Shown piece by piece: positions 3 to 45,199 of a stretch of DNA of 64,000 nucleotides. The stretch comes from Candidatus Pacearchaeota archaeon (GTDB lineage Archaea; Nanobdellota; Nanobdellia; Pacearchaeales; GW2011-AR1): positions 5,033-69,032 of the forward strand of contig JAFCDA010000001.1 of assembly GCA_017609915.1 (NCBI GenBank), in the 5' to 3' direction. Made by a program: the position numbers and the translations under genes. The stretch's first letter is position 1. Each line of letters opens with the position of its first letter. The notes under the pieces are model-generated. The model had not been told where the DNA came from. It made no database searches and saw nothing but the letters and a program-made list of their open reading frames with translations.

Positions 3-557
3 CAGGGGACTAGAAATCTAATTAATGCATGTGAAAAAAATAAAGTTAAAAAAATAATTTTTATGAGTTCATTAGATATTAAATTTAATACACCTTATGG
101 AAAATCTAAATTAAAAGCAGAAGAGATTATTAAAAACTCTAAATTAAAATATGTATTTTTAAGGCCTACTGCAATATATGGTGAAGGATTTAAAACAGGA
201 GTAAACTCTCTTGTTAAACTTGTAAAAAAAACACCTGTTTTTCCAATACCTGGTTCTGGAAAAAATCTATATCAACCACTTTATGTTAAAGATCTGATTT
301 TATTAATAAAACAAATTCTTGATAAAAATAAATTTAATAATAAAGTTTATTTTTTAGGTGGAAGTAAGATTATGAATTTAAATCAATTAGTAAATTTGAT
401 AAGTTTTAATCTTGGAAAGAAAACAATTAAAATTCATTTGCCAATTAAATCTAAAAACTTTAAATTTAATAAGATCTGCAGTAATGATAAGATCAAAAAA
501 GATTTTGATTTTGATCCTCTTCCGATAACAAAGGGGGTTCAGAAGATATTATGCTAG
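3..557 (+). CDS. NAD-dependent epimerase/dehydratase (extended SDR) family protein, C-terminal part; 5' end outside window
   Basis: Frame of the 63..557 ORF stays open back to nt 3 (QGTRNLINACEKNKVKKIIFMSS). PYGKSK is the SDR catalytic YxxxK. Lies at the edge of the sugar island. Confidence 0.7.
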   Translation, partial: QGTRNLINACEKNKVKKIIFMSSLDIKFNTPYGKSKLKAEEIIKNSKLKYVFLRPTAIYGEGFKTGVNSLVKLVKKTPVFPIPGSGKNLYQPLYVKDLILLIKQILDKNKFNNKVYFLGGSKIMNLNQLVNLISFNLGKKTIKIHLPIKSKNFKFNKICSNDKIKKDFDFDPLPITKGVQKILC

Positions 558-2100
558 AATAATCTGATCTATCAAACCTATAAATTATCAAACTTGGTTG
601 AGAGTTTTGTGCATCTACAAAATAAATCTTAAGAGGGTTTAAATTATTTTCTTGAGGATAAGTATAAGCCCAATCTTGATGAGGTTCATATATTGAAATC
701 ATTAAAAGAGTTATATTAGGATTAGATGCTACTAATTCTTCAAATTCTTCTTTTGTATTTGGAAGCCTTAGGGCTGTTATTTCACCATAAAATTGAATAT
801 GTGGCCAACTTTTTGTTACTATTACATCTTCTGGTTGAGAATTCTCTTTTATCCATAATCCTGCTTGTTTTACTTGCAAATAAGAATCTTTCTTTAATTT
901 AATTAAATTATCTGCGTCTTGTAATTGTAAATACCCAACTGTGCCTAAAAGAACTATTAAAAACAAAACTGCTATGAATTTGCCTTTTTTCCTTATGATC
1001 TCATATAAACTTATTATAAAAGCCCCAGCCATAGCAAAAACTACTGGAAAAATATTTATGATATATCTATCTTCGTTAAAAGCAACTGAAAAACTAACCA
1101 CAAGAATTGGTATTATTATTAATAAAATTAAAAATAAATCTTTTTTTAATTTAAAATCCTTTCCTTTAATTAACATATCAACCCCTATAAATATCTTATA
1201 TAAGGAGAATAATCCTAAGATAAAAAATATTAAAAGAGGCCATGAAAGAAGGGTTGGAAACATATGGATATAAGCCTTAAGATTAGTATATCCATTTGAA
1301 AAATATTCTCCTTCTGCAGGCGCATTCCATCCTCCTGCCTGAGTTATTACAAATCCTCCAAACTCAAAATAACCCCAAATAAGATATGGTGAAAGAATCA
1401 ATGCAAAGATTAATGCAGCTATCCATAATTCCTTTTTCTTAATAAATCTTAATCTTTCTGTTATTAAAAGATAAATTAAAAGAGAAAATAAGATTGTTGC
1501 TGTTGGTAATTTAAATAAGGTTCCGATTGCAACCATTACTGCTGCCCAGTATAATGATTTAACTGAGCCATCTTTAATATACTTATAAAGAAAAAAAGCA
1601 GAAAAAGTATAAAATGCTAAGGAAGGCACTTCAACTAAAAGTCTAAAACTGTAAAAAATATTAAGGTAAAAAACAGACATTAAAAATGTAGCTACTAAAG
1701 CTGCTTTTTTGTTATACAATTCTTTTGTAAAATAATATATTCCAAAAACAGAAGCCATTGATATAATCAACAAGAATAATCTTGGTAAAAACTCATTATA
1801 AGCTAATCTTAAAAATAATGACATGATAAAAGGAAAAAAAGCAGGCCTTACTACAAGAAATTCATATTCTAAGCCTAATGCCCAGGCTCTTGCCATACTC
1901 ATATATTCTGCCCCATCCCACCATAAAGGCTGGTTTTGGGTCATTAGAAAATAATATAAACGAATTATAAGAGCAAAGGCAATGATTAATGTAAAAATCA
2001 AATTGTGTGGTTTTTTTATCCAGTTAATTATTTTATCTGTTCTTTTTTCTATTGTTTTTTCTACATCTCCTACATCTTTTAAAAGTTCTTGTGCATCCAT
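493..2100 (-). CDS. GT-C fold membrane glycosyltransferase (PMT/ArnT-like, GT39/GT83-type)
   Basis: 535 aa with many TM helices by eye. Acidic first loop WWDGAEY as in PMT/ArnT-type enzymes, plus a C-terminal soluble domain. Call rests on architecture only. Confidence 0.55.
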   Translation of the reverse strand: MDAQELLKDVGDVEKTIEKRTDKIINWIKKPHNLIFTLIIAFALIIRLYYFLMTQNQPLWWDGAEYMSMARAWALGLEYEFLVVRPAFFPFIMSLFLRLAYNEFLPRLFLLIISMASVFGIYYFTKELYNKKAALVATFLMSVFYLNIFYSFRLLVEVPSLAFYTFSAFFLYKYIKDGSVKSLYWAAVMVAIGTLFKLPTATILFSLLIYLLITERLRFIKKKELWIAALIFALILSPYLIWGYFEFGGFVITQAGGWNAPAEGEYFSNGYTNLKAYIHMFPTLLSWPLLIFFILGLFSLYKIFIGVDMLIKGKDFKLKKDLFLILLIIIPILVVSFSVAFNEDRYIINIFPVVFAMAGAFIISLYEIIRKKGKFIAVLFLIVLLGTVGYLQLQDADNLIKLKKDSYLQVKQAGLWIKENSQPEDVIVTKSWPHIQFYGEITALRLPNTKEEFEELVASNPNITLLMISIYEPHQDWAYTYPQENNLNPLKIYFVDAQNSQPSLIIYRFDRSDYSSIISSEPPLLSEEDQNQNLF

Positions 2101-2156
2101 TTTTTTATTTTATTCTTTTTCTATTATCTCTATAAACATTTAAGTTTAATTATCTA

Positions 2157-2237
2157 GCAAGGGCACATCCCTTCCGTAACCCTATCTTTAAGCTTATCTT
2201 CTCAGCTGAGCATCTCTCCCTATGCTTATAAGATATT
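2157..2237. repeat. ~80-nt intergenic element, copy 1 (second copy 34171..34244)
   Basis: gcaagggcacatcccttccgtaaccc...tcttctcagctgag...ctatgcttataagatatt. About 88% identical, with small indels, to 34171..34244. Contains the hairpin AAGGG-CACAT-CCCTT. Confidence 0.8.
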
Positions 2238-2289
2238 GATATTCTTTTTATCTCTTAAATGAGATTCCTTTCTATTTAAAAATTATTGT

Positions 2290-8037: not shown

Positions 8038-8146
8038 TTTATATTGTTTATCTGGAATTTGATAAGCTCAATTTAGTTTTGAAGATGATTTGTTTAACTT
8101 AATCTTATCTTCTCCAAAGCTCTAGGTTTAATAAGATATTGATATT

Positions 8147-18911: not shown

Positions 18912-19023
18912 AAGGTGAATAAACTAATATCTTATAAGTATAGGAAAGATATTCAATGAGGAGCTTAAACTTATCAGATAATAAAACTTAAGATTTATAG
19001 AGATATTTAAAATAAAATATAAA

Positions 19024-28224: not shown

Positions 28225-29136
28225 ATGGACCCAATACAAATCCCTCAAGGTTACAATTATATATCTGCATTTTTAACAATGAGATGCAATCTTAATTGTA
28301 GTTTTTGCTTAAATTCAATTGACAAAAGCAGAGAATTTAATAGGACAAAATTTAAAGAGCTTTCTGGAGAGCAATGGGTTAAAGCATTAAATAGGATTGA
28401 ATCACGTCCAGAAGTTCCAGTAACCTTTTCAGGAGGAGAGCCTTTTTTACATCCAGATTTTCTTTATATCCTTAAGAATCTTAAAAAAGATTTAAACATA
28501 GATATTTTAACTAATTTATCTTTTGAAGTAGCTGTTGAAAAATTTTTAAAAGAAATAGACCCAGAAAGAATAAAGAGAAATGTTCCTTATGCTTGTATTC
28601 GTGTTTCTTATCATCCAGAACAAATGGGAAATGGTGCAGAACTTATTGAAACAGTTAAAAAACTAAAAGATGCTGGATTTAGTATTGGTGTATGGAGTGT
28701 TTTATATCCTTCTTTTGAAAATCTCTCTGCAATAAATCAAATGCAATTTAGATGTATAGATGCAGGAATTGATTTTAGATTAAAAGAATATACTGGAACC
28801 TATAAGGGAGACTTATATGGAGATTATTCTAAATATTCTAACTCAGTTTTATCAAATAAATTAAAAAAATGCTTATGTAAGGGCTCTGAATTATTAATAG
28901 CTCCAAATGGAAATATTTACAAATGTCACAGTGATTTATTTAGTGAAGAATTTCCTATAGGAAATATTCTTGACCCTAATTTCCAAATTAAAAACGAATT
29001 TAGAAAATGTGAGAAATATGGTCAGTGCCATCCATGTGATGTAAAACTTAAGACAAATTATAAACAAGAATTAGGGAATACCTCTGTTGAAATAAAAGAA
29101 ATAGAAGATAATTCTCAACCGAAAGTTATAGTTTAA
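28225..29136 (+). CDS. radical SAM protein (small, C-terminal Cys-rich)
   Basis: CNLNCSFC cluster motif, FSGGEPFLHPDF, C-terminal CEKYGQCHPCD. Confidence 0.75.
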   Translation: MDPIQIPQGYNYISAFLTMRCNLNCSFCLNSIDKSREFNRTKFKELSGEQWVKALNRIESRPEVPVTFSGGEPFLHPDFLYILKNLKKDLNIDILTNLSFEVAVEKFLKEIDPERIKRNVPYACIRVSYHPEQMGNGAELIETVKKLKDAGFSIGVWSVLYPSFENLSAINQMQFRCIDAGIDFRLKEYTGTYKGDLYGDYSKYSNSVLSNKLKKCLCKGSELLIAPNGNIYKCHSDLFSEEFPIGNILDPNFQIKNEFRKCEKYGQCHPCDVKLKTNYKQELGNTSVEIKEIEDNSQPKVIV

Positions 29137-29223
29137 ATTTTTTGGTATTTATAAAAATATGATGAGATAAAGAAGAGGGATTAAGTTATTCAGATAATAT
29201 CTCTTGATTGAGCTTATAAAATA

Positions 29224-30840
29224 TTAAAATGTTTTTTTTATAGATTTTTTAACTAATTTTAAATCCTTAAATAATTTTTTTATAACTGATTTTATCACCA
29301 TTAAATCCTCTTTATCAAGAGAATGTGAAATAATTATTAAAGACAAGTAAAGTAAAATAAACAAAGAGGTTAAAATTATAATTGAAAAAACATTAATTGT
29401 AACTTTTTCTATTAAATAAAATAAAACTCCTGTTGGGATTATTGAAACTAAGATTATAGTAAACATCTTTCTTTTTAAAGGTATAAATGAAAGATGTTTT
29501 TTTGTTTGTATAATCAAAAGGGTATTTAAAAAGATTATAGATAAAACAGTTGCAAGAGAAGCTCCGATTAAACCATTTGAATTATCTAAAGAAAACAAAA
29601 CAGGTATTGGAACTAATATTGAATTTAATATTAAATTAACAATTGCAGATATAGATATATTAAACAAGATTAACTTAGATTTACCTAACATTGAAATAAG
29701 ATTTGTTGAAATCATAAATAATGCAGAAATAAATGTTCCAATTAGCAAAAATTTAAGGGCAATTTGTGCAATAACATATTGACTTCCAAAAAGGATATTT
29801 AATGATGCTCCTGAAAAAAAGAATATTAAAATAAAAATTGGAAGAATTGCCATAAATATCCATTTATTTACTTGTTTACTAAGCTGTTTGATTAAAGCAT
29901 TATTTTTTGCAGAATATTGTCTTGTTATAAGTGGAAAAAATAACTGCATAAATAATTGTGGGACAATCATTATAAGCATTGCAATTGGCACAGCTGCATT
30001 ATAAAACCCAACTTCTACTGCAGATTTATAATAACCTAAAGAAATAGTATCAATCCAATGAAAAATAATAGATATAGCTGCAAAAAATAATAATGGCCAG
30101 GAATATTGAAAAAACTCTTTACTAATCTTTGAATAATCTTTTTTCTCATAAGAACCAAAGATTTTATTTATTTTATTTTTACAAACTAAATAAGCAGCAA
30201 ATAATGTAAGAATTGAACCAGATATGTAAGACCAAACAACAGCATTTCCTCCTGAATTAAAACCTATGAAAATAAGAATTATAAGCACACCTACACGGAC
30301 TAAATTTTGAAAAATATTAAAAATAAAAGAATACCATCCAATCTTTTCAAACCCTCTAAGCACTGTGAGAAATATACTTGCAAGCATTACAGCAAGAATT
30401 GAAAAACTCATTATTTTTAGAAAAATAGAAAGGCTTGGATTATGAAATATTTGTATTGAAATAAAATCTGATAAACCAATTAAAACTATTGAAGCAATTA
30501 TCCCAGAGATTAAATAAAATCTCAGTGTTTTTCTAAATAAATACCTCATCTCATTAATCTTTTTTCTCTCTCTTAATAATGGGACAAATCTTAATAATCC
30601 ATCTACAAAACCAAAAGAAGCAATTGTGATAAAAAGAGGGATTACAGATAAAACAAGAGAAAATAATCCATAAATTTCTGGGCCATAATAACGAGCAATA
30701 ATTATCCTATAAGCATACATTAAAACTTTTGATAAAAAAAGTCCAATAAAAACAATAAAAGAAGATTTCATAATTAGTTTAAGAGATTTATTAAGCTGAT
30801 TTTCTCTTGTAATATGTTCCTGATTTTTCAAATGTTCCAT
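29224..30840 (-). CDS. oligosaccharide/polysaccharide flippase (MOP superfamily, Wzx-like)
   Basis: 538 aa with ~14 TM helices by eye. N-terminal pattern typical of polysaccharide biosynthesis (Wzx) proteins. Closes the glycan island. Confidence 0.7.
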   Translation of the reverse strand: MEHLKNQEHITRENQLNKSLKLIMKSSFIVFIGLFLSKVLMYAYRIIIARYYGPEIYGLFSLVLSVIPLFITIASFGFVDGLLRFVPLLRERKKINEMRYLFRKTLRFYLISGIIASIVLIGLSDFISIQIFHNPSLSIFLKIMSFSILAVMLASIFLTVLRGFEKIGWYSFIFNIFQNLVRVGVLIILIFIGFNSGGNAVVWSYISGSILTLFAAYLVCKNKINKIFGSYEKKDYSKISKEFFQYSWPLLFFAAISIIFHWIDTISLGYYKSAVEVGFYNAAVPIAMLIMIVPQLFMQLFFPLITRQYSAKNNALIKQLSKQVNKWIFMAILPIFILIFFFSGASLNILFGSQYVIAQIALKFLLIGTFISALFMISTNLISMLGKSKLILFNISISAIVNLILNSILVPIPVLFSLDNSNGLIGASLATVLSIIFLNTLLIIQTKKHLSFIPLKRKMFTIILVSIIPTGVLFYLIEKVTINVFSIIILTSLFILLYLSLIIISHSLDKEDLMVIKSVIKKLFKDLKLVKKSIKKTF

Positions 30841-30904: not shown

Positions 30905-31333
30905 TCAAAAATATTTGTTTGGATATTTTTCTCTTAATACTAAATGTCTTATTAAACTAAATTCCCTAACATAAAGCATATTTTTATGCCCAAAGTATAA
31001 TAAATCTAATATTGAATGAAATATCATTCCAATTAAAGCAAAATAAAATCCTCTCCAGAAAAAAGATAAAATAAAAACAAGAATTAAAAATTCTATTGTG
31101 TGGAAAACCATCATTATTGGTTTTTTTAAATTTTTACTTAGTTTTTCAAGATAATTATAAGAATTTTTTAAATCCCAATCTTTTTTTCTTGCTACATACC
31201 ATAAGTAATGGTCAAAGTCTATTAAAATAGAACTTAAAAAAACTAAAAGAGTTTGGAAGATAGTTAATGAAAATAACCAATATAATAATGCTGAAAATAT
31301 TGCTCCTAATATGATGTGGTGTTTTGGCAGCAT
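30905..31333 (-). CDS. small membrane protein (possibly DUF457/YdjM-like metal-dependent hydrolase)
   Basis: MLPKHHIILGAIF...LIDFDHYLWY. 4 TM helices. Confidence 0.35.
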   Translation of the reverse strand: MLPKHHIILGAIFSALLYWLFSLTIFQTLLVFLSSILIDFDHYLWYVARKKDWDLKNSYNYLEKLSKNLKKPIMMVFHTIEFLILVFILSFFWRGFYFALIGMIFHSILDLLYFGHKNMLYVREFSLIRHLVLREKYPNKYF

Positions 31334-31556
31334 TTTTACCTCTTTTTTATGTTTCTTTTTTTATCTCTATAATCTTAGGTTTAATTATCTGAGTTTTTCT
31401 TAATCCCAGTAGAACAAATCTCCCTATACTTATAAATTATTTGTATAAAATATTTATATTCTTATTGTATTTTTAAGCTATGCTCTTCTTTTCTTTAAAT
31501 CTTAATCTCATCATAACATCTTTTCTTATGCTTATAAGATATTTGTTTTTAATAGA

Positions 31557-33062
31557 TTAATCTCTCAAAATCTTTTTTACCATTTCTGAGAATGCAGGAC
31601 GAGTAATAAATACTCCTGCTGAGATTCCAATTATTGTTGTGATTGCAAATCCTTTTAATAAACCTGCTCCTGCCCACATAAGAGGAAGCAAAGCAAATAA
31701 TGTAGTTACATATGTTCCTAAAATAATAAACAAAGCTCTTTTAATTCTCTGTTTTAATGAAAGAATATGACTCATTTGAGATTCATCTAAGATAATTATT
31801 TGTGAATCAACCCCTGTTCCAATTGCTGCTATAATTCCTGCAATTGCTGGTAAATCTAAATTTCTTTTAAATAATGCTGAAATTCCTAAAATTATTAAAA
31901 CTTCACACAAACTTGTTAATAAAACTGCTAAAGATAATTTTATTTTTCTATATCTTAAAAAAATCATTAAACCTACTGCAAGAATTGCAGCAGCTCCTGC
32001 AATTAAAATTGTGTTAATAAATTTTTTCCCAAGTAATGGAGAAATTGTATCTAATTTTTCTATTTGTAATTTAAAAGGTAGAGAGCCTGTTTTTAGAACT
32101 GTTTGTAATCTATTCATCTCAATTTTAGTATTTTCTATTGCTTCATTCCTTGTTTCTCCAGACCCAGATCCGCTAATTTGAATCTGAGTTGTTGTACTCC
32201 CCCTCAATCCTTCAGAAATAGATAAAGAACTAAATAATTCATCATCTAAATATAAATCTATTTTTTTATCTAATGATTGTGGATTTTCAGGGTCTAATCC
32301 CAACCCTTTTGTTATCTTTGCAAATCTTTCTGCAGCTTCTGGGCTTAAGGTTATTCCAAATCTAAAGTTACAAAATTCTTCTTCTTGAGTGGTTCTACAA
32401 TCATAAATTCCTGCCTGTTCTCCTGTTTTTGCAACATAAGTTATATCCCTATTCCCACCAATAAATACAGTTTTGTTTCCGATTTTTGCTTCAAATTTTC
32501 CTTGTTGAGAAATTAAATTTCCAAGTTCTTCACGGGTTGAACCAGCTATTTCAATTAACATATAATTATTTCCAGAAAGGTCTGTAACAGGCCTAATTAT
32601 AATATCTTTTAGTCCATAAACATTTAATCTCTGGCTTGTTATGTCTATAAGATCTTGCAACTCCTGAACATTTAATTTTTTATCCTTAGCTACAACTAAT
32701 GCTCTTGATCCACCTGATAAATCTAATCCTGTTTTGATTCTTGTTTTATCTATATTTGCAACACTTATTTGTGGAGCTTTATTTGTAAATAAAATAAATT
32801 CTCCTTTTTTAGTTGTTATTGTTATTTTTTGATTTTCACTTAAAAAAACTTTTGAATTAATTATTTCTTTATAATCTTCAAAACTTAATATTTTTTGCCC
32901 ATCAATATGGGTAATTATCTGTCCTTGCCTTAATCCTTGTTCATAAGCTGTTGAATTTTGTTCTATTGAAATAATTTCAACTCCTTTTTCAAAATTTAAA
33001 GGAACCATAGCTAATATAGAACCTAAAACTACAAATATTAATAACCAAATTTTCCAGTTCAT
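31557..33062 (-). CDS. secD: protein-export membrane protein SecD with N-terminal PDZ-like segment
   Basis: GLDLSGGSRALV motif and a C-terminal 5-6 TM bundle. Directly downstream of secF. Confidence 0.75.
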   Translation of the reverse strand: MNWKIWLLIFVVLGSILAMVPLNFEKGVEIISIEQNSTAYEQGLRQGQIITHIDGQKILSFEDYKEIINSKVFLSENQKITITTKKGEFILFTNKAPQISVANIDKTRIKTGLDLSGGSRALVVAKDKKLNVQELQDLIDITSQRLNVYGLKDIIIRPVTDLSGNNYMLIEIAGSTREELGNLISQQGKFEAKIGNKTVFIGGNRDITYVAKTGEQAGIYDCRTTQEEEFCNFRFGITLSPEAAERFAKITKGLGLDPENPQSLDKKIDLYLDDELFSSLSISEGLRGSTTTQIQISGSGSGETRNEAIENTKIEMNRLQTVLKTGSLPFKLQIEKLDTISPLLGKKFINTILIAGAAAILAVGLMIFLRYRKIKLSLAVLLTSLCEVLIILGISALFKRNLDLPAIAGIIAAIGTGVDSQIIILDESQMSHILSLKQRIKRALFIILGTYVTTLFALLPLMWAGAGLLKGFAITTIIGISAGVFITRPAFSEMVKKILRD

Positions 33063-33168
33063 TTTTTGTTTTTCATTTTTATTTAATTTTTAATTATCTT
33101 ATATCCTTAATCTTCTCATCTGAATCTCGTTCTATGCTTATAAGATATTAATTATTTTCCTCCATAAT

Positions 33169-34122
33169 TTAATCCCTCTCCTTCTTTTCCAAATACCATT
33201 TTAATATTGAAGCATTTGTAATCCATGTATTAAGAATATCAAAACCTAAACCAATTAACAAGATAGTGAATATTTGTTTTAAAACAGGTGAAAATGATTG
33301 AGTGATAATTAAAGCTACACTAAGTGCAATTATAGAAGTTAGAGTCATTGTTATCCCTGTTTTAAATGCATCTTTAAGTTTTGTGTTTATTTGCCCTTGT
33401 CTTTTTAATAGACGTGTTGTAAGCATAATATCAGTATCTACACTATAACCAATTAACATTAAAAATGCAATAATTCCTGCACTTGAAACTCTTATTCCTA
33501 ATATATTTACTAAAGCTAAAGTCATCATAATATCTGCAAAAGCAGAAAGAACAACTGCCATACTTGGTGCAAAAGTTCTAAAAATAATAAAAACAACTAT
33601 TGCCATTAAAATAAAAGATATTAAAATTGCAAATTGTAATTGTTTGTAAAAAGACTCTCCTAAAGTTGAGCCTGTTGAGACCACGCTTGAATTTTCACTT
33701 GTTAAGTCATAACCTAAGAAATCTTCTATTGAAGAAGTTATGGTTTTATACTCTTCAGAAGTTGATTCTATTGGAATTTCAATAATAATTGCTTCTTGTT
33801 TTCCTGTTCTAAAATTAGATAGTTCTCTGATATTAAAATCATCTATTTTCTGAGATAATCTGTTTGTTAAATCATTTATATTTATTTCTTCTTGTTCAGA
33901 AAAAATAGTTATTGTTGTTCCTCCTGTTAAAGAAACATCTCTTTTTATGAAGTCGTTGTTTTGCTGGTGGAAATATGCTATATAACCTAATGATAGGATT
34001 AATAAAATTAAGGGGATTAAAAGTAGTAACTTATAGTTTTTATTATAAAATTTTAGGGCTTTTCTTCCTAATTTCTTTTCTTCTTGTTCTATTTCATTGA
34101 GGATGTTGTTTTCTTGTTCCAT
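33169..34122 (-). CDS. secF: protein-export membrane protein SecF
   Basis: LMLIGYSVDTDIMLTTRLLKR and the TM pattern. Met at 34122 (MEQENN) preferred over ORF-track start 34182, which runs into the repeat element. Confidence 0.8.
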   Translation of the reverse strand: MEQENNILNEIEQEEKKLGRKALKFYNKNYKLLLLIPLILLILSLGYIAYFHQQNNDFIKRDVSLTGGTTITIFSEQEEININDLTNRLSQKIDDFNIRELSNFRTGKQEAIIIEIPIESTSEEYKTITSSIEDFLGYDLTSENSSVVSTGSTLGESFYKQLQFAILISFILMAIVVFIIFRTFAPSMAVVLSAFADIMMTLALVNILGIRVSSAGIIAFLMLIGYSVDTDIMLTTRLLKRQGQINTKLKDAFKTGITMTLTSIIALSVALIITQSFSPVLKQIFTILLIGLGFDILNTWITNASILKWYLEKKERD

Positions 34123-34170
34123 ATTTTGTTTTATCTGGTATCTTAATATCTTAAGCTGAATTGATGAGTG

Positions 34171-34244
34171 GCAAGGGTACATCCCTTCCGTAACCCTTTT
34201 CTTAATCTTCTCATCTGAGTATCTCTCTATGCTTATAAAATATT
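34171..34244. repeat. ~80-nt intergenic element, copy 2 (first copy 2157..2237)
   Basis: gcaagggtacatcccttccgtaaccc...tcttctcatctgag...ctatgcttataaaatatt. Same orientation relative to the downstream (minus-strand) gene as copy 1. Confidence 0.8.
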
Positions 34245-34272
34245 AGTTTTTTATTTGATTTTTATTATTAAA

Positions 34273-34343
34273 TGCGCGGACTGGGAATCGAACCCAGGTT
34301 TTCTGGTTGGAAGCCAGAAGTTCTACCACTAAACTATCCACGC
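34273..34343 (-). tRNA. tRNA-Gly (anticodon UCC)
   Basis: Minus strand GCGTGGA TA GTTT..GAAC T TCTGG CTTCCAA CCAGA ... CTGGG TTCGATT CCCAG TCCGCGC A. Cloverleaf folds by hand. Confidence 0.9.
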
Positions 34344-34392
34344 ATGATTTCACTAATTTCTAAGGGTTTTTAAAGATTATTAAGCCTTATGA

Positions 34393-34466
34393 TGCTCCTG
34401 ACAGGACTCGAACCTGCGACCCCTTCCTTAGGAGGGAAGTGCTCTATCCAACTGAGCTACAGGAGC
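34393..34466 (-). tRNA. tRNA-Arg (anticodon CCU)
   Basis: Minus strand GCTCCTG TA GCTC AGTTGGATA GAGC A CTTCC CTCCTAA GGAAG ... GCAGG TTCGAGT CCTGT CAGGAGC A. Confidence 0.9.
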
Positions 34467-35225: not shown

Positions 35226-37982
35226 ATGAAATTAAAAGAAAGGAAAGAAGGTAATTTTTTTTATTATTTAAAGAAAAGTTTAAAATTTATTTCTAGAGGT
35301 ATATTTAATAAAAAAACAAAAATCATTTTCTGGATTTTAATTCTGATTGTTCTTTTTTCAATGGGAACGCTTTTTGGATTATTAATTTCTGGTTTTTTTG
35401 GGACATTTGATGAGCCCTCACAAAGAGTTATAGATTTATTGCATTCTAAAGGCATAATAGGGCTTAAAAATATTAAACGCCAAATGGAAGGGGTTATTAG
35501 TGAAAATTTCAAGATTCCAATTAATTACATAGCAGGCCAATTTTCAAAACCTAAGAAAATCTTTATTGATATTGGTCTTGATAATTATAAAAGAATAGAG
35601 TATAAACGTGAACAAGCATTAGATATTGGGGTGCTTGTTACTTCTGGAGAAGATTATGTTCCTGCAGAGATTAGATATAAAGACCAGGTAGTTAATGTAA
35701 ACTTAAGATTAAAAGGAGATTGGGTGGATCATCTTGAAGGAGATAAATGGTCTTTTAGAATTAAAACAAAAGGAGATACGCTTTTTGGAATGAAAACTTT
35801 TTCAATACAAGACCCAAAAACTAGAAATTATTTAAATGAATGGTTGTATCATCAGGCTCTTGAAAGAGAAGATGTCTTATCTCTTAAGTATGATTTTGTA
35901 GAGGTTGTTATAAATGGAGAAAATAAAGGCATATATGCTTTAGAAGAACATTTTGAAAAACAATTAATTGAACGAAATAATAGGAGAGAAGGATTGATTA
36001 TTAAATTTAATGAAGATCCTATGTGGGATGAAATTGTAAAAATAAATAATTATTATACTCATCCTCTTGAATTAATTAGTGCTTTAGATAATAAATCTTT
36101 AGATTGGTTTTATAGTAGCAGTATAGAAACTTTTACTAATGAAAAATCTTTAAAAGATCCTTATTTAGCTAAACAATTTGAAGAAGCTAGTAGTTTATTA
36201 GAATCTTTTAGAAGAGGTTCATTAGGAGTTTCAGAAGTTTTTGATACAGATAAACTTGCAAAATATTTTGCTATTAATACATTAATGGGAACTGGACATG
36301 CTTCTACATGGAATAATATTAGATTTTATTATAATCCTATAACTTCCCGTTTAGAACCAATTGGTTTTGATGCAAATTGTGATGTTGAGGCCCCATATAA
36401 TGTTATCGGAGATTATATTCCTCCTTGTTTATCTAATGAAAACAATTGTTCTCAAAAAATAGAATCTTTTTCTGATTTATTTCTCAGGGATAAAGAATTT
36501 TTTGAAAAATATATGAAAGAATTAGATAAATTTTCTCAAAAATCTTATTTAGATAGCTTATTTTTAGATTTGGGTGATGACCTTGAAAAAAATTTAAACA
36601 TTATTCATAAGAATTATCCCTTTTATTGTTTTTCCATCCAATCTTTTTATGAAAGACAGAAACGAATAAGAGAAGGATTAACCCCTTTGAAAAGTATAAA
36701 TGCATATTTTCAGAAAAGTTTACCTTCTCAAAATGAACTTGTTTTATATATTGGAAATGTGAAGTTCATCCCTTTAGAAATTGAAAATTTAGTTTATAAT
36801 GATTCTGTTATCTTTCACTTAATTGAAGGTGATAAACTTCTTCAACCAAAAATAGCTTCTGAGCCTGTAGATTATCAAAAGTTTAATTTTAAAATTCCTG
36901 CTGGTTTTTCATGGAATGACAGCTTTGCTTCAGATTTAAAGATTAATTATAAAATCTTGGGAATTGAGGGGATAAAAGAAGAGATTGTTTCTCCCTGGTC
37001 TTATGTTGAAGAAAACTTCTTAGAAGAAGATTTTATAAGGCAAGAAACAAATATTAGTTCTTTTGAATTATTAATAATAGAAGAAGATACTAAATCAATA
37101 TTTATTCAAAAAGGGTCGTGGATTTTAAATCAAAGTATGACTATTCCTCCAGGATTTAGTGTGTATTGTAATGAAGGAACAAGTATTAATCTTATGAATG
37201 GTGCAACAATACTTTCTTATTCAGACTTACAATTTTCTGGATCAGACGAAAATCCAATTAAAATCTTTTCATCTGATAGAACTGGGCAAGGCCTTACATT
37301 ATTAAATGTCGAACGTGTTTCTAATCTTAAACATGTTATTTTTAATGATTTGACAAGTCCAATTAAAAAAGGCTGGGAACTTTCTGGAGCAATCAACTTT
37401 TATAAATCTCCTGTTAAATTAGAGAATATTATTATCAAAGATATTAATTCAGAAGATGGTTTAAATATAATTGACTCTGAATTTGAAATTAGAGATTCTC
37501 ATTTTGAAAATTGTATTTCAGATTGTTTTGATGGTGATTTTGTAGAAGGTCCTATAAAATCTTCTTCATTTATTGGTTGTGGAAATGATGGTTTAGATTT
37601 TTCAGGAAGTTTTGTTGATATAGAAAATATTGATATTTTAAATGTAGGAGACAAAGGGATAAGTGTTGGAGAAGATAGTAATGTAACAATAGAGAATGCA
37701 AAGATAAATGGAGATAAGTTAAATAAAGGTTATATTGGAATTGCAAGTAAGGATAAATCACAAGTTTTTATTAAAAATAGTGAAATTTCAAATGTTGAGT
37801 ATGGTCTTGCAGTTTATGAAAAAAAATCTGAATTTGGAGCTGCTTCAATAAATGCTATCAATATTAATTTTTCTAATATAAATAATAGTTATATTATTGA
37901 AAAAGAATCATCTCTTTTAATTGATGATGTTATGATGCTTAATAAAGAAGAAGAAGTTTATAAAAAATTATATGAATTATGA
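35226..37982 (+). CDS. CotH kinase-like protein with C-terminal beta-helix repeats, N-terminal TM anchor
   Basis: GDWVDHLEGDKWSFRIKTKGD...FSIQDPKTRNYLNEWLYHQALERE...VVINGENKGIYALEEHFEKQLIE matches the CotH family pattern. The C-terminal ~300 aa look like a right-handed beta-helix. Confidence 0.65.
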   Translation: MKLKERKEGNFFYYLKKSLKFISRGIFNKKTKIIFWILILIVLFSMGTLFGLLISGFFGTFDEPSQRVIDLLHSKGIIGLKNIKRQMEGVISENFKIPINYIAGQFSKPKKIFIDIGLDNYKRIEYKREQALDIGVLVTSGEDYVPAEIRYKDQVVNVNLRLKGDWVDHLEGDKWSFRIKTKGDTLFGMKTFSIQDPKTRNYLNEWLYHQALEREDVLSLKYDFVEVVINGENKGIYALEEHFEKQLIERNNRREGLIIKFNEDPMWDEIVKINNYYTHPLELISALDNKSLDWFYSSSIETFTNEKSLKDPYLAKQFEEASSLLESFRRGSLGVSEVFDTDKLAKYFAINTLMGTGHASTWNNIRFYYNPITSRLEPIGFDANCDVEAPYNVIGDYIPPCLSNENNCSQKIESFSDLFLRDKEFFEKYMKELDKFSQKSYLDSLFLDLGDDLEKNLNIIHKNYPFYCFSIQSFYERQKRIREGLTPLKSINAYFQKSLPSQNELVLYIGNVKFIPLEIENLVYNDSVIFHLIEGDKLLQPKIASEPVDYQKFNFKIPAGFSWNDSFASDLKINYKILGIEGIKEEIVSPWSYVEENFLEEDFIRQETNISSFELLIIEEDTKSIFIQKGSWILNQSMTIPPGFSVYCNEGTSINLMNGATILSYSDLQFSGSDENPIKIFSSDRTGQGLTLLNVERVSNLKHVIFNDLTSPIKKGWELSGAINFYKSPVKLENIIIKDINSEDGLNIIDSEFEIRDSHFENCISDCFDGDFVEGPIKSSSFIGCGNDGLDFSGSFVDIENIDILNVGDKGISVGEDSNVTIENAKINGDKLNKGYIGIASKDKSQVFIKNSEISNVEYGLAVYEKKSEFGAASINAININFSNINNSYIIEKESSLLIDDVMMLNKEEEVYKKLYEL

Positions 37983-39780: not shown

Positions 39781-39894
39781 GGAGACGACCATAATAATCT
39801 GGTCACACCTGATCCGATTTCCAACTCAGAAGTTAAGCAGATTATGTTTAAGGTATTAGTTTCAGAGATGAAGTGAAGCCATAAAGTTGTCTTC
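39781..39894 (+). rRNA. 5S ribosomal RNA (stand-alone)
   Basis: GGAGACGACCATA...CACACCTGATCCGATTTCCAACTCAGAAGTTAAGC... matches conserved 5S loop/helix signatures. The 5' GGAGACGAC pairs with the 3' GTTGTCTTC. Confidence 0.8.
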
Positions 39895-39964
39895 TTTATA
39901 TTCCAAACAACTTTATATAAAAAGCCAGTATCTTATAAAATATAAATAAACATAAAAATAAAAA

Positions 39965-40162
39965 ATGATAATACCTCTTCGTTGCATATCTTGTGGAAAG
40001 CCAATTGGTCATTTGTGGCAGGATTTTAAAGAAAGAACTGAAAAAGGAGAAGATTCTAAAAAAGTCTTAGATGAATTAGGTTTAGAAAGATATTGCTGCA
40101 GAGCTATGTTTTTAGGGCAAGTTGATATATTAGAGTTAGTTAATAAGTTTAAGAAGTTCTGA
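39965..40162 (+). CDS. rpoN: DNA-directed RNA polymerase subunit N (Rpo10)
   Basis: MIIPLRCISCGKPIGHLWQDF...LGLERYCCRAMFLGQVD. Canonical Rpo10/RpoN zinc bundle. Confidence 0.9.
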   Translation: MIIPLRCISCGKPIGHLWQDFKERTEKGEDSKKVLDELGLERYCCRAMFLGQVDILELVNKFKKF

Positions 40163-44785: not shown

Positions 44786-44833
44786 ATTTTTTAGAAAAAT
44801 ATTTAAACCAAAGTAATTGTATATTATTTTAAA

Positions 44834-45031
44834 ATGAAGCGGTGTATTTATTGTAAATGTGGTTTATCTGAAGAATCTGTTATTGATTTTTGTGAAAGAT
44901 GTGGACATGGTGCTTTTGGAGAAAAAATGTTTAAGGTGATTGTTCAAAACATGAAAGACGCCAAGGAAAGAGGGGACTTACATCAATAAGAAACCTTTTT
45001 AAAGCTCTTATTTTTAAGGATTTTATATTAA
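44834..45031 (+). CDS. small zinc-ribbon protein (not in ORF track; 3' end uncertain)
   Basis: MKRCIYCKCGLSEESVIDFCERCGHGAFGEKMFKVI... contains two CxxC pairs. After the T-run at 44940-44942, another frame encodes a more protein-like tail (VQNMKDAKERGDLHQ*). Confidence 0.35.
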
Positions 45032-45043
45032 ACTAAACTAATA

Positions 45044-45071
45044 CCCAAAAAAATCAAATAGATTTTTTGGG
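45044..45071 (+). terminator. hairpin with T-tract after ABC/zinc-ribbon unit
   Basis: CCCAAAAAA-tcaaataga-TTTTTTGGG, a 9-bp perfect stem. A second imperfect hairpin follows immediately: CCTAGAAAA...TTTTCTTAGG. Confidence 0.45.
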
Positions 45072-45164
45072 CCTAGAAAACCATAAAAATTTTCTTAGGT
45101 CTTATAAAACTTTAAGTTATGCCCCATTAAGATTTAACTACTCAGATAATCAAAATCTCATGAG

Positions 45165-45176
45165 CTTATAAGATAT
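45165..45176 (+). promoter_or_regulatory. putative TATA-like box (CTTATAAGATAT) for L21e operon
   Basis: Lies 24-35 nt upstream of the ATG at 45200. Part of the recurring palindromic box. Confidence 0.45.
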
Positions 45177-45199
45177 AGATAAACAAATTAAAACAAAAA

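Follow-up and report, generated by a model that had tools for sequence, protein, structure and literature searches.

The 64-kb window (the whole stretch of DNA that was analyzed) has a G+C content of 27% and carries the archaeal gene order S13-S4-S11-RpoD-L18e-L13-S9 together with DUF655. The closest named homologs of its SecF and GT-C proteins are from Candidatus Pacearchaeota and Nanoarchaeota MAGs. Two copies of a 26-base block, GGGTTACGGAAGGGATGTRCCCTTGC, lie upstream of the GT-C gene and of secF, respectively, in the following setting.

493-2100, minus strand: gene for GT-C (PMT_2 glycosyltransferase)
2157-2182, minus strand: copy A of the 26-mer, GGGTTACGGAAGGGATGTGCCCTTGC, a G+C-rich hairpin AAGGG/CCCUU with the loop AUGUG
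33169-34122, minus strand: secF gene
34171-34196, minus strand: copy B of the 26-mer, GGGTTACGGAAGGGATGTACCCTTGC, with the loop AUGUA
34272-34466, minus strand: tRNA-Arg(CCT) and tRNA-Gly(TCC) genes, directly upstream of the sequence holding copy B, their synteny with secF being kept even in the outgroup contig L030

Both 26-mers are on the minus strand, upstream of genes for membrane proteins, with copy A ending 56 nt before the ATG of the GT-C gene (2100) and copy B ending 48 nt before that of secF (34122), in agreement with the shared orientation and gene context described in the first-pass annotation. The two look-alike stretches of ~80 nt that it had put at ~88% identity are real: a global alignment of 2157-2237 with 34171-34244 (81 nt versus 74 nt) gave 69 identities over 82 columns, or 84%, and 94.5% over ungapped columns. 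When up to three mismatches were allowed, the 26-mer was found at exactly these two sites, which may be an undercount because the search was limited to 64 kb of the genome; none of 100 dinucleotide shuffles contained a match. The copies differ from each other by a single loop residue, G in copy A and A in copy B. The hairpin AAGGG-AUGUR-CCCUU that had been drawn for the block is indeed predicted, although a rival 8-bp fold (AGGGU.ACG / UGU GCCCU) is about equally stable and the folding energies are unremarkable (z-scores of -0.8 to -2.4). The window has no other G+C-rich repeat if the paired tRNA-Leu genes and a few isolated 13-mers with two copies each are disregarded; likewise, tRNA and 5S genes aside, G+C islands between genes are found at the two 26-mers alone.

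Judged by sequence, each of the two ~80-nt stretches belongs to a larger dispersed family of promoter-like cassettes. The ~45 nt before the 26-mer recur elsewhere and are therefore not specific to the two sites. The first two modules, ATATCTTATAAGCATAG and TCAGnTGAGAAGATtAAG, are found again at 33148(-), 31542(-), 31440(-), and 18927(+), and in weaker form near 8146(-), 50079(+), and 24813(+). The parts of a cassette follow in the order box 1 (ATATC-TTATAAGCATAG, in its fuller form (ATATCA)ATATC-TTATAAGCATAG), gAGAGAT, cAGATGAGAAGATTAAG, a variable center, CTTAAAGAT, and box 2 (TTATAgAGATA), the last lying about 30 nt before the ATG. The conserved stretch after box 1 reads gAGAGAT..cAGATGAG|AAGATTAAG, and the 3' module has the form (CTCATCAAyTCAG)CTTAAAGAT, followed by box 2 as the second TATA-like box. 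An imperfect inverted repeat, UUAAG../..CUUAA and sometimes GAUGAG/CUCAUC, flanks the center of 0 to about 57 nt, and the whole cassette measures about 90-150 bp, with copies about 61-74% identical. Within the window, TTATAAGCATAG with at most one mismatch was observed 7 times versus 0.97 expected. An nhmmer search with the 5' module gave 26 matches at E<0.01 in 167 kb (the window and related contigs), six of them in the window, and a same-strand ORF starts 86-229 nt downstream of all 26, the larger distances belonging to tandem copies. There are at least six clear cassette copies in the window and 23 non-redundant ones when relatives are included; each of these 23 faces a gene start downstream of it. 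The copies in the window are as follows.

2101-2236, minus strand: cassette A, before the GT-C (PMT_2) gene, with box 1 at 2220-2236, the 5' module extending to 2195, the 26-mer at 2157-2182, and box 2 (TTTATAGAGATA) at 2125-2136
34123-34243, minus strand: cassette B, before secF, with box 1 at 34227-34243, the 5' module extending to 34201, the 26-mer at 34171-34196, the 3' module CACTCATCAATTCAGCTTAAGAT, and box 2 (ATATTAAGATA) at 34139-34149
33063-33148, minus strand: cassette of secD, consisting of box 1, the 5' module, and box 2, with the center and the 3' half missing
31334-31542, minus strand: two tandem cassettes, starting at 31542 and 31440, before a gene for 142 amino acids (30905-31333)
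18927-19023, plus strand: cassette before a gene for an FkbM-type methyltransferase, collinear with cassette A and without the 26-mer
About 8146, minus strand: weaker cassette, before a B12/radical-SAM gene
About 24813, plus strand: weaker cassette, before a radical-SAM/SPASM gene
About 50079, plus strand: weaker cassette, before the gene for ribosomal protein S9

The 5' module and a TATA-like box near the ATG are retained in every cassette. The secD cassette has orthologs in five related contigs (L006, L008, L009, L011, and L012). The spacer that separates the 5' module of this secF-secD cassette from its CTCATC 3' module consists of CTA (3 nt) in L006 and L011 and of tens of nucleotides in L008 and L009, and the copy in the window has neither this spacer nor the 3' module. 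Tandem cassettes occur not only at 31542/31440 but also in L006 and L018. The 26-mer occupies this variable center in both A and B, directly before the 3' module. The cassette upstream of 19024 lacks it and is otherwise collinear, as had been noted, and the 26/27-nt block does behave like an optional insert within otherwise collinear upstream cassettes. The suggested tie to membrane or secreted proteins did not hold, as cassettes also precede genes for radical-SAM enzymes, a methyltransferase, S9, S13, and RpoN.

A second cassette subtype (TTATAAGCTCAW..GAGAT.TATCTGAGTAGCTTAA) was observed at 29137-29224(-), 38027(-), 40178(+), and 45176(-), with no obvious downstream gene served. One of its copies lies between the convergent genes 28225-29136(+) and 29224-30840(-), and the copy at 45176(-) faces an ORF-free gap (44786-45199) and has a palindromic CTTATAAG in common with the opposite-strand L21e promoter.

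As the organism is a DPANN archaeon of the Pacearchaeota type, bacterial promoter and terminator logic is inapplicable. The archaeal core promoter is defined by a TATA-like element about 24-31 nt before the transcription start; here the spacing to the ATG was measured, and archaeal BRE/TATA promoters that drive leaderless mRNAs are expected to place the motif at such a distance from the ATG. A literature search found no published promoter architecture for DPANN archaea. Most genes of the window carry the canonical promoter motif aaaNC-TTTAAAWA, the C of which has a sharp maximum at positions -32 to -29 relative to the ATG, and so sharp a distance implies that the mRNAs are predominantly leaderless. 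In cassettes A, B, secD, and 18927, box 2 and the ATG are 27-37 nt apart. In the proximal 31440 cassette the box is about 40 nt away, and the gene served (30905) has a GAGGT Shine-Dalgarno sequence that was seen at none of the other cassette genes in the window. Box 1 (aATATC-TTATAAG) fits the promoter consensus of the genome, and at genes without a cassette box-1-type sequences stand 27-35 nt from the ATG, where they are the sole promoter-like motif of L21e, S13, and the VTC-domain gene. At such a distance, the transcription start belonging to box 1 would be predicted within GAG|AAGATTAAG. From this spacing we infer that the cassette comprises a predicted distal and a predicted proximal promoter around an imperfect inverted repeat; the two boxes are partly inverted copies of each other, and for this reason, and in a genome so rich in A+T, TATA-like matches come easily. 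If both boxes were active with the predicted starts, the hairpin could be transcribed as part of a long leader from the distal promoter, at about +13 to +38, or else it could serve as DNA about 45-80 bp upstream of the proximal start.

Several observations on translation and transcription at these loci may be added. Shine-Dalgarno-like sequences (GGAGG/GAGG) are found mostly before internal operon genes, e.g., 43035, 43317, and 43574. A five-codon uORF (ATGAAAAACAAAAAATGA, MKNKK*) at 33059-33076(-) has a stop codon overlapping the start of secD (ATGA); L006, L008, L011, and L012 have this uORF too (L012 in the form MKTKK*), and L009 does not. Its ATG comes ~28 nt after box 2, so that a leaderless mini-ORF could pass ribosomes to secD via termination-reinitiation. 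In three contigs the secF ATG is about 13-30 nt past the 3' end of tRNA-Gly (L012:520-785, L030:9740-10010, and L011:860-1130), which leaves no room for a promoter and suggests that secF is co-transcribed with tRNA-Arg and tRNA-Gly; this arrangement suggests, in turn, that tRNA processing releases a near-leaderless secF mRNA in those relatives.

The age of the two elements was assessed in related contigs. A near-identical strain (JGI 3300033148; SecF 99% and GT-C 100% identical) carries both 26-mers and differs from the window at 7 positions in 5.7 kb. Two of these 7 differences are in the hairpin loops, with the stem intact: copy B has the loop AUGUG in contig L005 (A/G at window position 34178; L005:2033), and copy A has an additional GGA in its loop after window position 2171 in contig L017 (L017:453-455). 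The loops of both hairpins may be a mutation hotspot, an observation that is post hoc with n=2. The hairpin is the sole preserved feature of the 26-mer. In contigs of relatives whose proteins are 71-86% identical (L006, L008, L009, L011, L012, L018, and L019), the 26-mer is absent before secF and GT-C. These relatives keep the synteny of tRNA-Arg, tRNA-Gly, secF, and secD, and that of GT9 and GT-C, and most of them have cassettes at the corresponding places, with retention at orthologous sites down to 71-80% protein identity. No cassettes were found in 21 kb of the outgroup L030 (Pacearchaeota; SecF 66% identical), where secF overlaps secD and begins 17 nt past tRNA-Gly. An indel of ~100 nt bounded by a TATAAA repeat distinguishes L011 from L008. 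This distribution across the strain, the relatives, and L030 restricts the cassettes to a sub-lineage and the 26-mer to one species; by its sequence distribution, then, the 26-mer appears to be young and to have arisen in the lineage of this species.

The wider search that the first-pass annotation had proposed recovered the 26-mer in contigs of the near-identical strain, but gave no true match in public collections. For the 26-mer pattern, there were 0 matches in GTDB representative genomes, 4 in the JGI metagenome collection (all in contigs of 59-65% G+C), and 10 in IMG/VR (all in contigs of 46-65% G+C); the JGI and IMG/VR matches were judged to be chance because they lie in contigs of such high G+C content. 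The cassette pattern was matched in public collections by one Pacearchaeota MAG and by three bacterial sequences that we attribute to chance, and no match was found in viruses.

The proposed Rfam scan returned nothing relevant at either copy: at gathering thresholds only four tRNAs and the 5S rRNA were found in the whole window, and local E-value scans around both copies gave a best value of E=0.88, far under the gathering scores. The pairing UUAAG/CUUAA is present in most cassettes, with an extension that differs between copies yet stays complementary (CU/AG, UUAU/AUAA, UUAUAC/GUGUAA), and GAUGAG/CUCAUC encloses the variable center in secD-type copies. In an alignment of 16 cassettes, 73.9% of the cells in helices S1 and S2 pair in register versus 24-53% when the partner was slid. 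In the covariation analysis that had also been called for, the pair counts on these 16 cassettes were not above shuffles, 57 of the 500 scoring at least as high, and the pairs of the UUAAG/CUUAA core are invariant. The 26-mer sequences available for comparison are near-identical copies with changes confined to the loop. An RNA structure of the cassette is therefore possible, but neither demonstrated nor indispensable, the latter because the secD cassette of the window lacks the entire 3' half. A pseudoknot in which S1 (GAUGAG/CUCAUC) would cross S2 (UUAAGCU/AGCUUAA) was rejected: the strands are complementary, but covariation did not exceed that of controls and the secD copy lacks the 3' half.

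Other candidate functions were considered and set aside. Box C/D sRNAs have C (RUGAUGA) and D (CUGA) boxes at their ends, separated by a guide-length spacing. In the cassettes, AGAUGAG and CUGAG are partial matches only, no paired D box lies at the right spacing, and snoRNA models gave E>7. An uORF or leader peptide is contradicted by the xTGAG position, which is A, G, T, or C in different copies, and by the lack of a conserved start or frame. An ATG in the hairpin loop would encode MCPC* in copy A but an in-frame extension of secF in copy B, and a reading of the 26-mer as part of an N-terminal extension is not supported by P0052, the long N-terminus of which has no trace of it. CGGAAGG and GGGAUGUA resemble helix 8 of SRP RNA, a similarity taken as chance and without Rfam support.

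The borders of the block bear on how it may have come to lie in two cassettes. Without the 26-mer, cassettes A and B are 68% identical, versus 74% for A and 18927 and 74% for B and secD. Inside the block, 26 of 27 positions are identical, and identity is at background level exactly at its borders; aligned with cassette 31440, copy B appears as a clean 27-nt insertion between TTAAGAAAA and ACTCA. Such a drop in identity at the borders suggests that the block alone was copied recently, into two cassettes that already existed. Our preferred reading, which we consider probable while leaving appreciable room for others, is that of a lineage-specific, gene-oriented, promoter-bearing family of intergenic repeats with a recently copied hairpin insert. 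The 26-mer would have arisen in the lineage of this species and would have been copied between two diverged cassettes, whether by short-patch recombination or templated repair or else by insertion. Conversion would need end points exactly at the insert borders, without flanking identity, and a true insertion fits better for that reason. If the 26-mer is active at all, it may act as a nucleic-acid hairpin rather than as a sequence-specific riboregulator.

The near-identity within the block (26/27) and its collapse at the borders, in host cassettes that are 68% identical, as well as the clean 27-nt insertion of copy B relative to 31440, would also be expected of a minimal mobile G+C-rich palindrome, REP- or GC-cluster-like, that was inserted independently at the same preferred site of the cassette. 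The block is a G+C-rich palindrome in a genome of 27% G+C and the sole such repeat present, AGATA is found on either side of copy A, and relatives lack the 26-mer, all of which would fit such an element. We nevertheless consider it rather unlikely, since only two copies are visible, both at corresponding positions of their cassettes, no target-site duplication accompanies copy B, there is no GTAG-type REP head, no transposase or RAYT was found among the scanned window proteins, the contigs of relatives have no comparable G+C-rich repeats, and public collections gave no true match. A more far-reaching version, in which the 26/27-mer would be an archaeal counterpart of REP or GC clusters that homes to the center of cassettes, themselves a lineage-specific 'mobile promoter' splitting operons such as secF-secD, seems doubtful to us. 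Mobility may instead be sought in the cassette as a whole, which would be a MITE-like transposable element of about 90-150 bp with terminal inverted repeats, its promoter activity being a by-product or a later gain. Restriction to one lineage, with overlapping secF and secD and no cassette in L030 versus a cassette between them in relatives, would speak for this, as would the tandem copies (31542/31440, L006, and L018), the partial complementarity of box 1 and box 2 (ATATCTTATAAGC versus GCTTAtAAGAT), and the ~100-nt indel bounded by TATAAA in L011/L008. All 23 non-redundant copies, however, face a gene start, which is unexpected from random insertion; cassettes are retained at orthologous sites down to 71-80% protein identity; no clear or consistent target-site duplications and no partner IS element were seen; and the register of the terminal repeats differs between copies, the complementarity of the boxes amounting to 9-14 bp of palindromic TATA-like sequence in differing registers in A, B, and 18927. 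As a description of the present elements we find this improbable. As an origin it is a reasonable account of how the family may have spread, given its lineage restriction, tandem copies, and partly inverted ends. The uniform gene orientation and the retention at orthologous sites indicate that the present cassettes are under selection as an upstream element.

The remaining explanations would assign a function to the 26-mer itself or to the interval between its copies. In archaeal genomes rich in A+T, a G+C-rich island is often the sign of a structured RNA, and the first-pass annotation had favored, among other candidates, a shared structured 5' leader, i.e., a cis-regulatory or protein-binding RNA, here controlling membrane or secretory genes. 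In its favor, GT-C and SecF are both membrane proteins, strain differences affect the loop and leave the stem intact, and the copies are G+C islands in an A+T-rich genome. A conserved leader of this kind is very unlikely in our view: relatives lack the 26-mer in the orthologous leaders of secF and GT-C, the gene for SecD, with which SecF functions, has a cassette without it, there is no Rfam match, and the folding z-scores are weak. The likely promoter, box 2, is moreover downstream of the 26-mer, which would therefore be outside the leaderless mRNAs. Archaeal activators use positions about 45-80 bp upstream of the start, and the block, which is identical in sequence at two genes, lies at this distance before the predicted proximal start as an inverted repeat whose halves are 5 bp apart. 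It might be an operator, with the palindrome AAGGG-N5-CCCTT bound by a dimeric transcription factor upstream of the proximal promoter of two co-regulated genes. We give this a slim chance only, as the spacer in L017 has changed from 5 to 8 bp, which would rotate the half-sites and yet is tolerated, and as there are only two sites, both absent in relatives. That the 26-mers are the attL and attR of an integrated element of ~32 kb beside tRNA genes was suggested by their being direct repeats 32 kb apart, with copy B 75 nt from tRNA-Gly, but this reading is hardly credible: it is refuted by the synteny of GT9/GT-C and of tRNA-Gly/secF, which is continuous in relatives without the repeat. Gene content is also against it, the interval holding glycan-biosynthesis and radical-SAM genes and SecDF with no integrase or recombinase, and cassette sequence is found on both sides of both repeats.

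In the preferred reading of promoter-bearing cassettes with a copied insert, the cassette family is the more interesting part. The 26-mer serves mainly as a marker of copying between cassettes, and possibly as a hairpin mutation hotspot, rather than as a new regulatory RNA. Gene-oriented repeats with two TATA-like boxes would offer a testable model of how transcription may be organized in reduced DPANN genomes. In the lineage that carries them, they lie between genes whose counterparts overlap in the single outgroup contig analyzed, and the family would exemplify promoter propagation in archaea.

The nearest experimentally characterized analog that we identified for the cassettes is the set of intergenic repeats of halovirus HF2, the class I and class II IRs, for which promoter activity has been demonstrated (PMC8707807). 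Both these repeats and the cassettes are short (tens of bp) and A+T-rich, precede unrelated genes, are conserved in position among close relatives, and contain TATA-like motifs. The cassettes differ in belonging to a cellular DPANN genome, in measuring about 90-150 bp, and in having two TATA-like boxes that flank an inverted repeat with a variable center; there is no sequence similarity, and the promoter activity of the cassettes is predicted only. Highly similar upstream regions have been surveyed as putative mobile promoters by Matus-Garcia et al. ('Promoter propagation in prokaryotes'; PMC3488235). The cassettes share with these the occurrence of similar upstream regions before non-homologous genes of one genome, but differ in their internal modular insert and in an identity of merely about 61-74%, by which they look older or constrained at the level of motifs only.

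Pneumococcal BOX and enterobacterial ERIC elements, like the cassettes, are imperfect palindromes scattered over the genome, in which the end modules are conserved and further modules or insertions may occupy fixed internal positions. The 26-mer is like such an optional internal module. BOX and ERIC, however, come from bacteria, have no sequence relationship to the cassettes, and mostly occur in both orientations, whereas the cassettes are strictly gene-oriented and promoter-like. REP and REPIN elements are recognized by their high copy number in a genome, their conserved GTAG head, and the RAYT transposase that accompanies them. Like these elements and the GC clusters of yeast mitochondria, the 26-mer is a short palindrome, rich in G+C, that lies in A+T-rich intergenic DNA at otherwise dissimilar sites. 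Unlike REP elements and REPINs (the latter discussed in PMC8049555), it is present twice in 64 kb and lacks a GTAG head; the scanned window proteins included no RAYT, and its mobility is putative. Box 2 and the C-TTTAAA motif of the other genes resemble archaeal BRE/TATA leaderless promoters, being located about 27-32 nt before the ATG with a Shine-Dalgarno sequence only at longer spacing, but the cassettes depart from the standard archaeal promoter in a second conserved upstream box and about 35 nt of conserved sequence downstream of that box. None of the systems compared is a sequence relative of the cassettes or of the 26-mer.

The neighboring loci contain further features. The 32 kb between the two 26-mer copies (2290-33062) form an island for cell-surface glycans and their modification, with several GT2/GT4/GT6/GT9 glycosyltransferases and five B12- or SPASM-type radical-SAM enzymes, as well as a sulfatase, PAPS reductase, DegT aminotransferase, flippase, and QueC. 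A stand-alone 5S rRNA gene at 39781-39895(+) is followed by RpoN-like DNA at ~39950-40160(+), which resembles the gene for the small RpoN subunit in relatives; 5S and RpoN are adjacent in L030 too, and in the window just a box-1-type motif (39928) lies between them. The gene at 35226-37982(+) encodes a protein of 918 amino acids with a CotH kinase-like domain and a right-handed beta-helix, and it adjoins the DUF4956 and VTC-domain genes.
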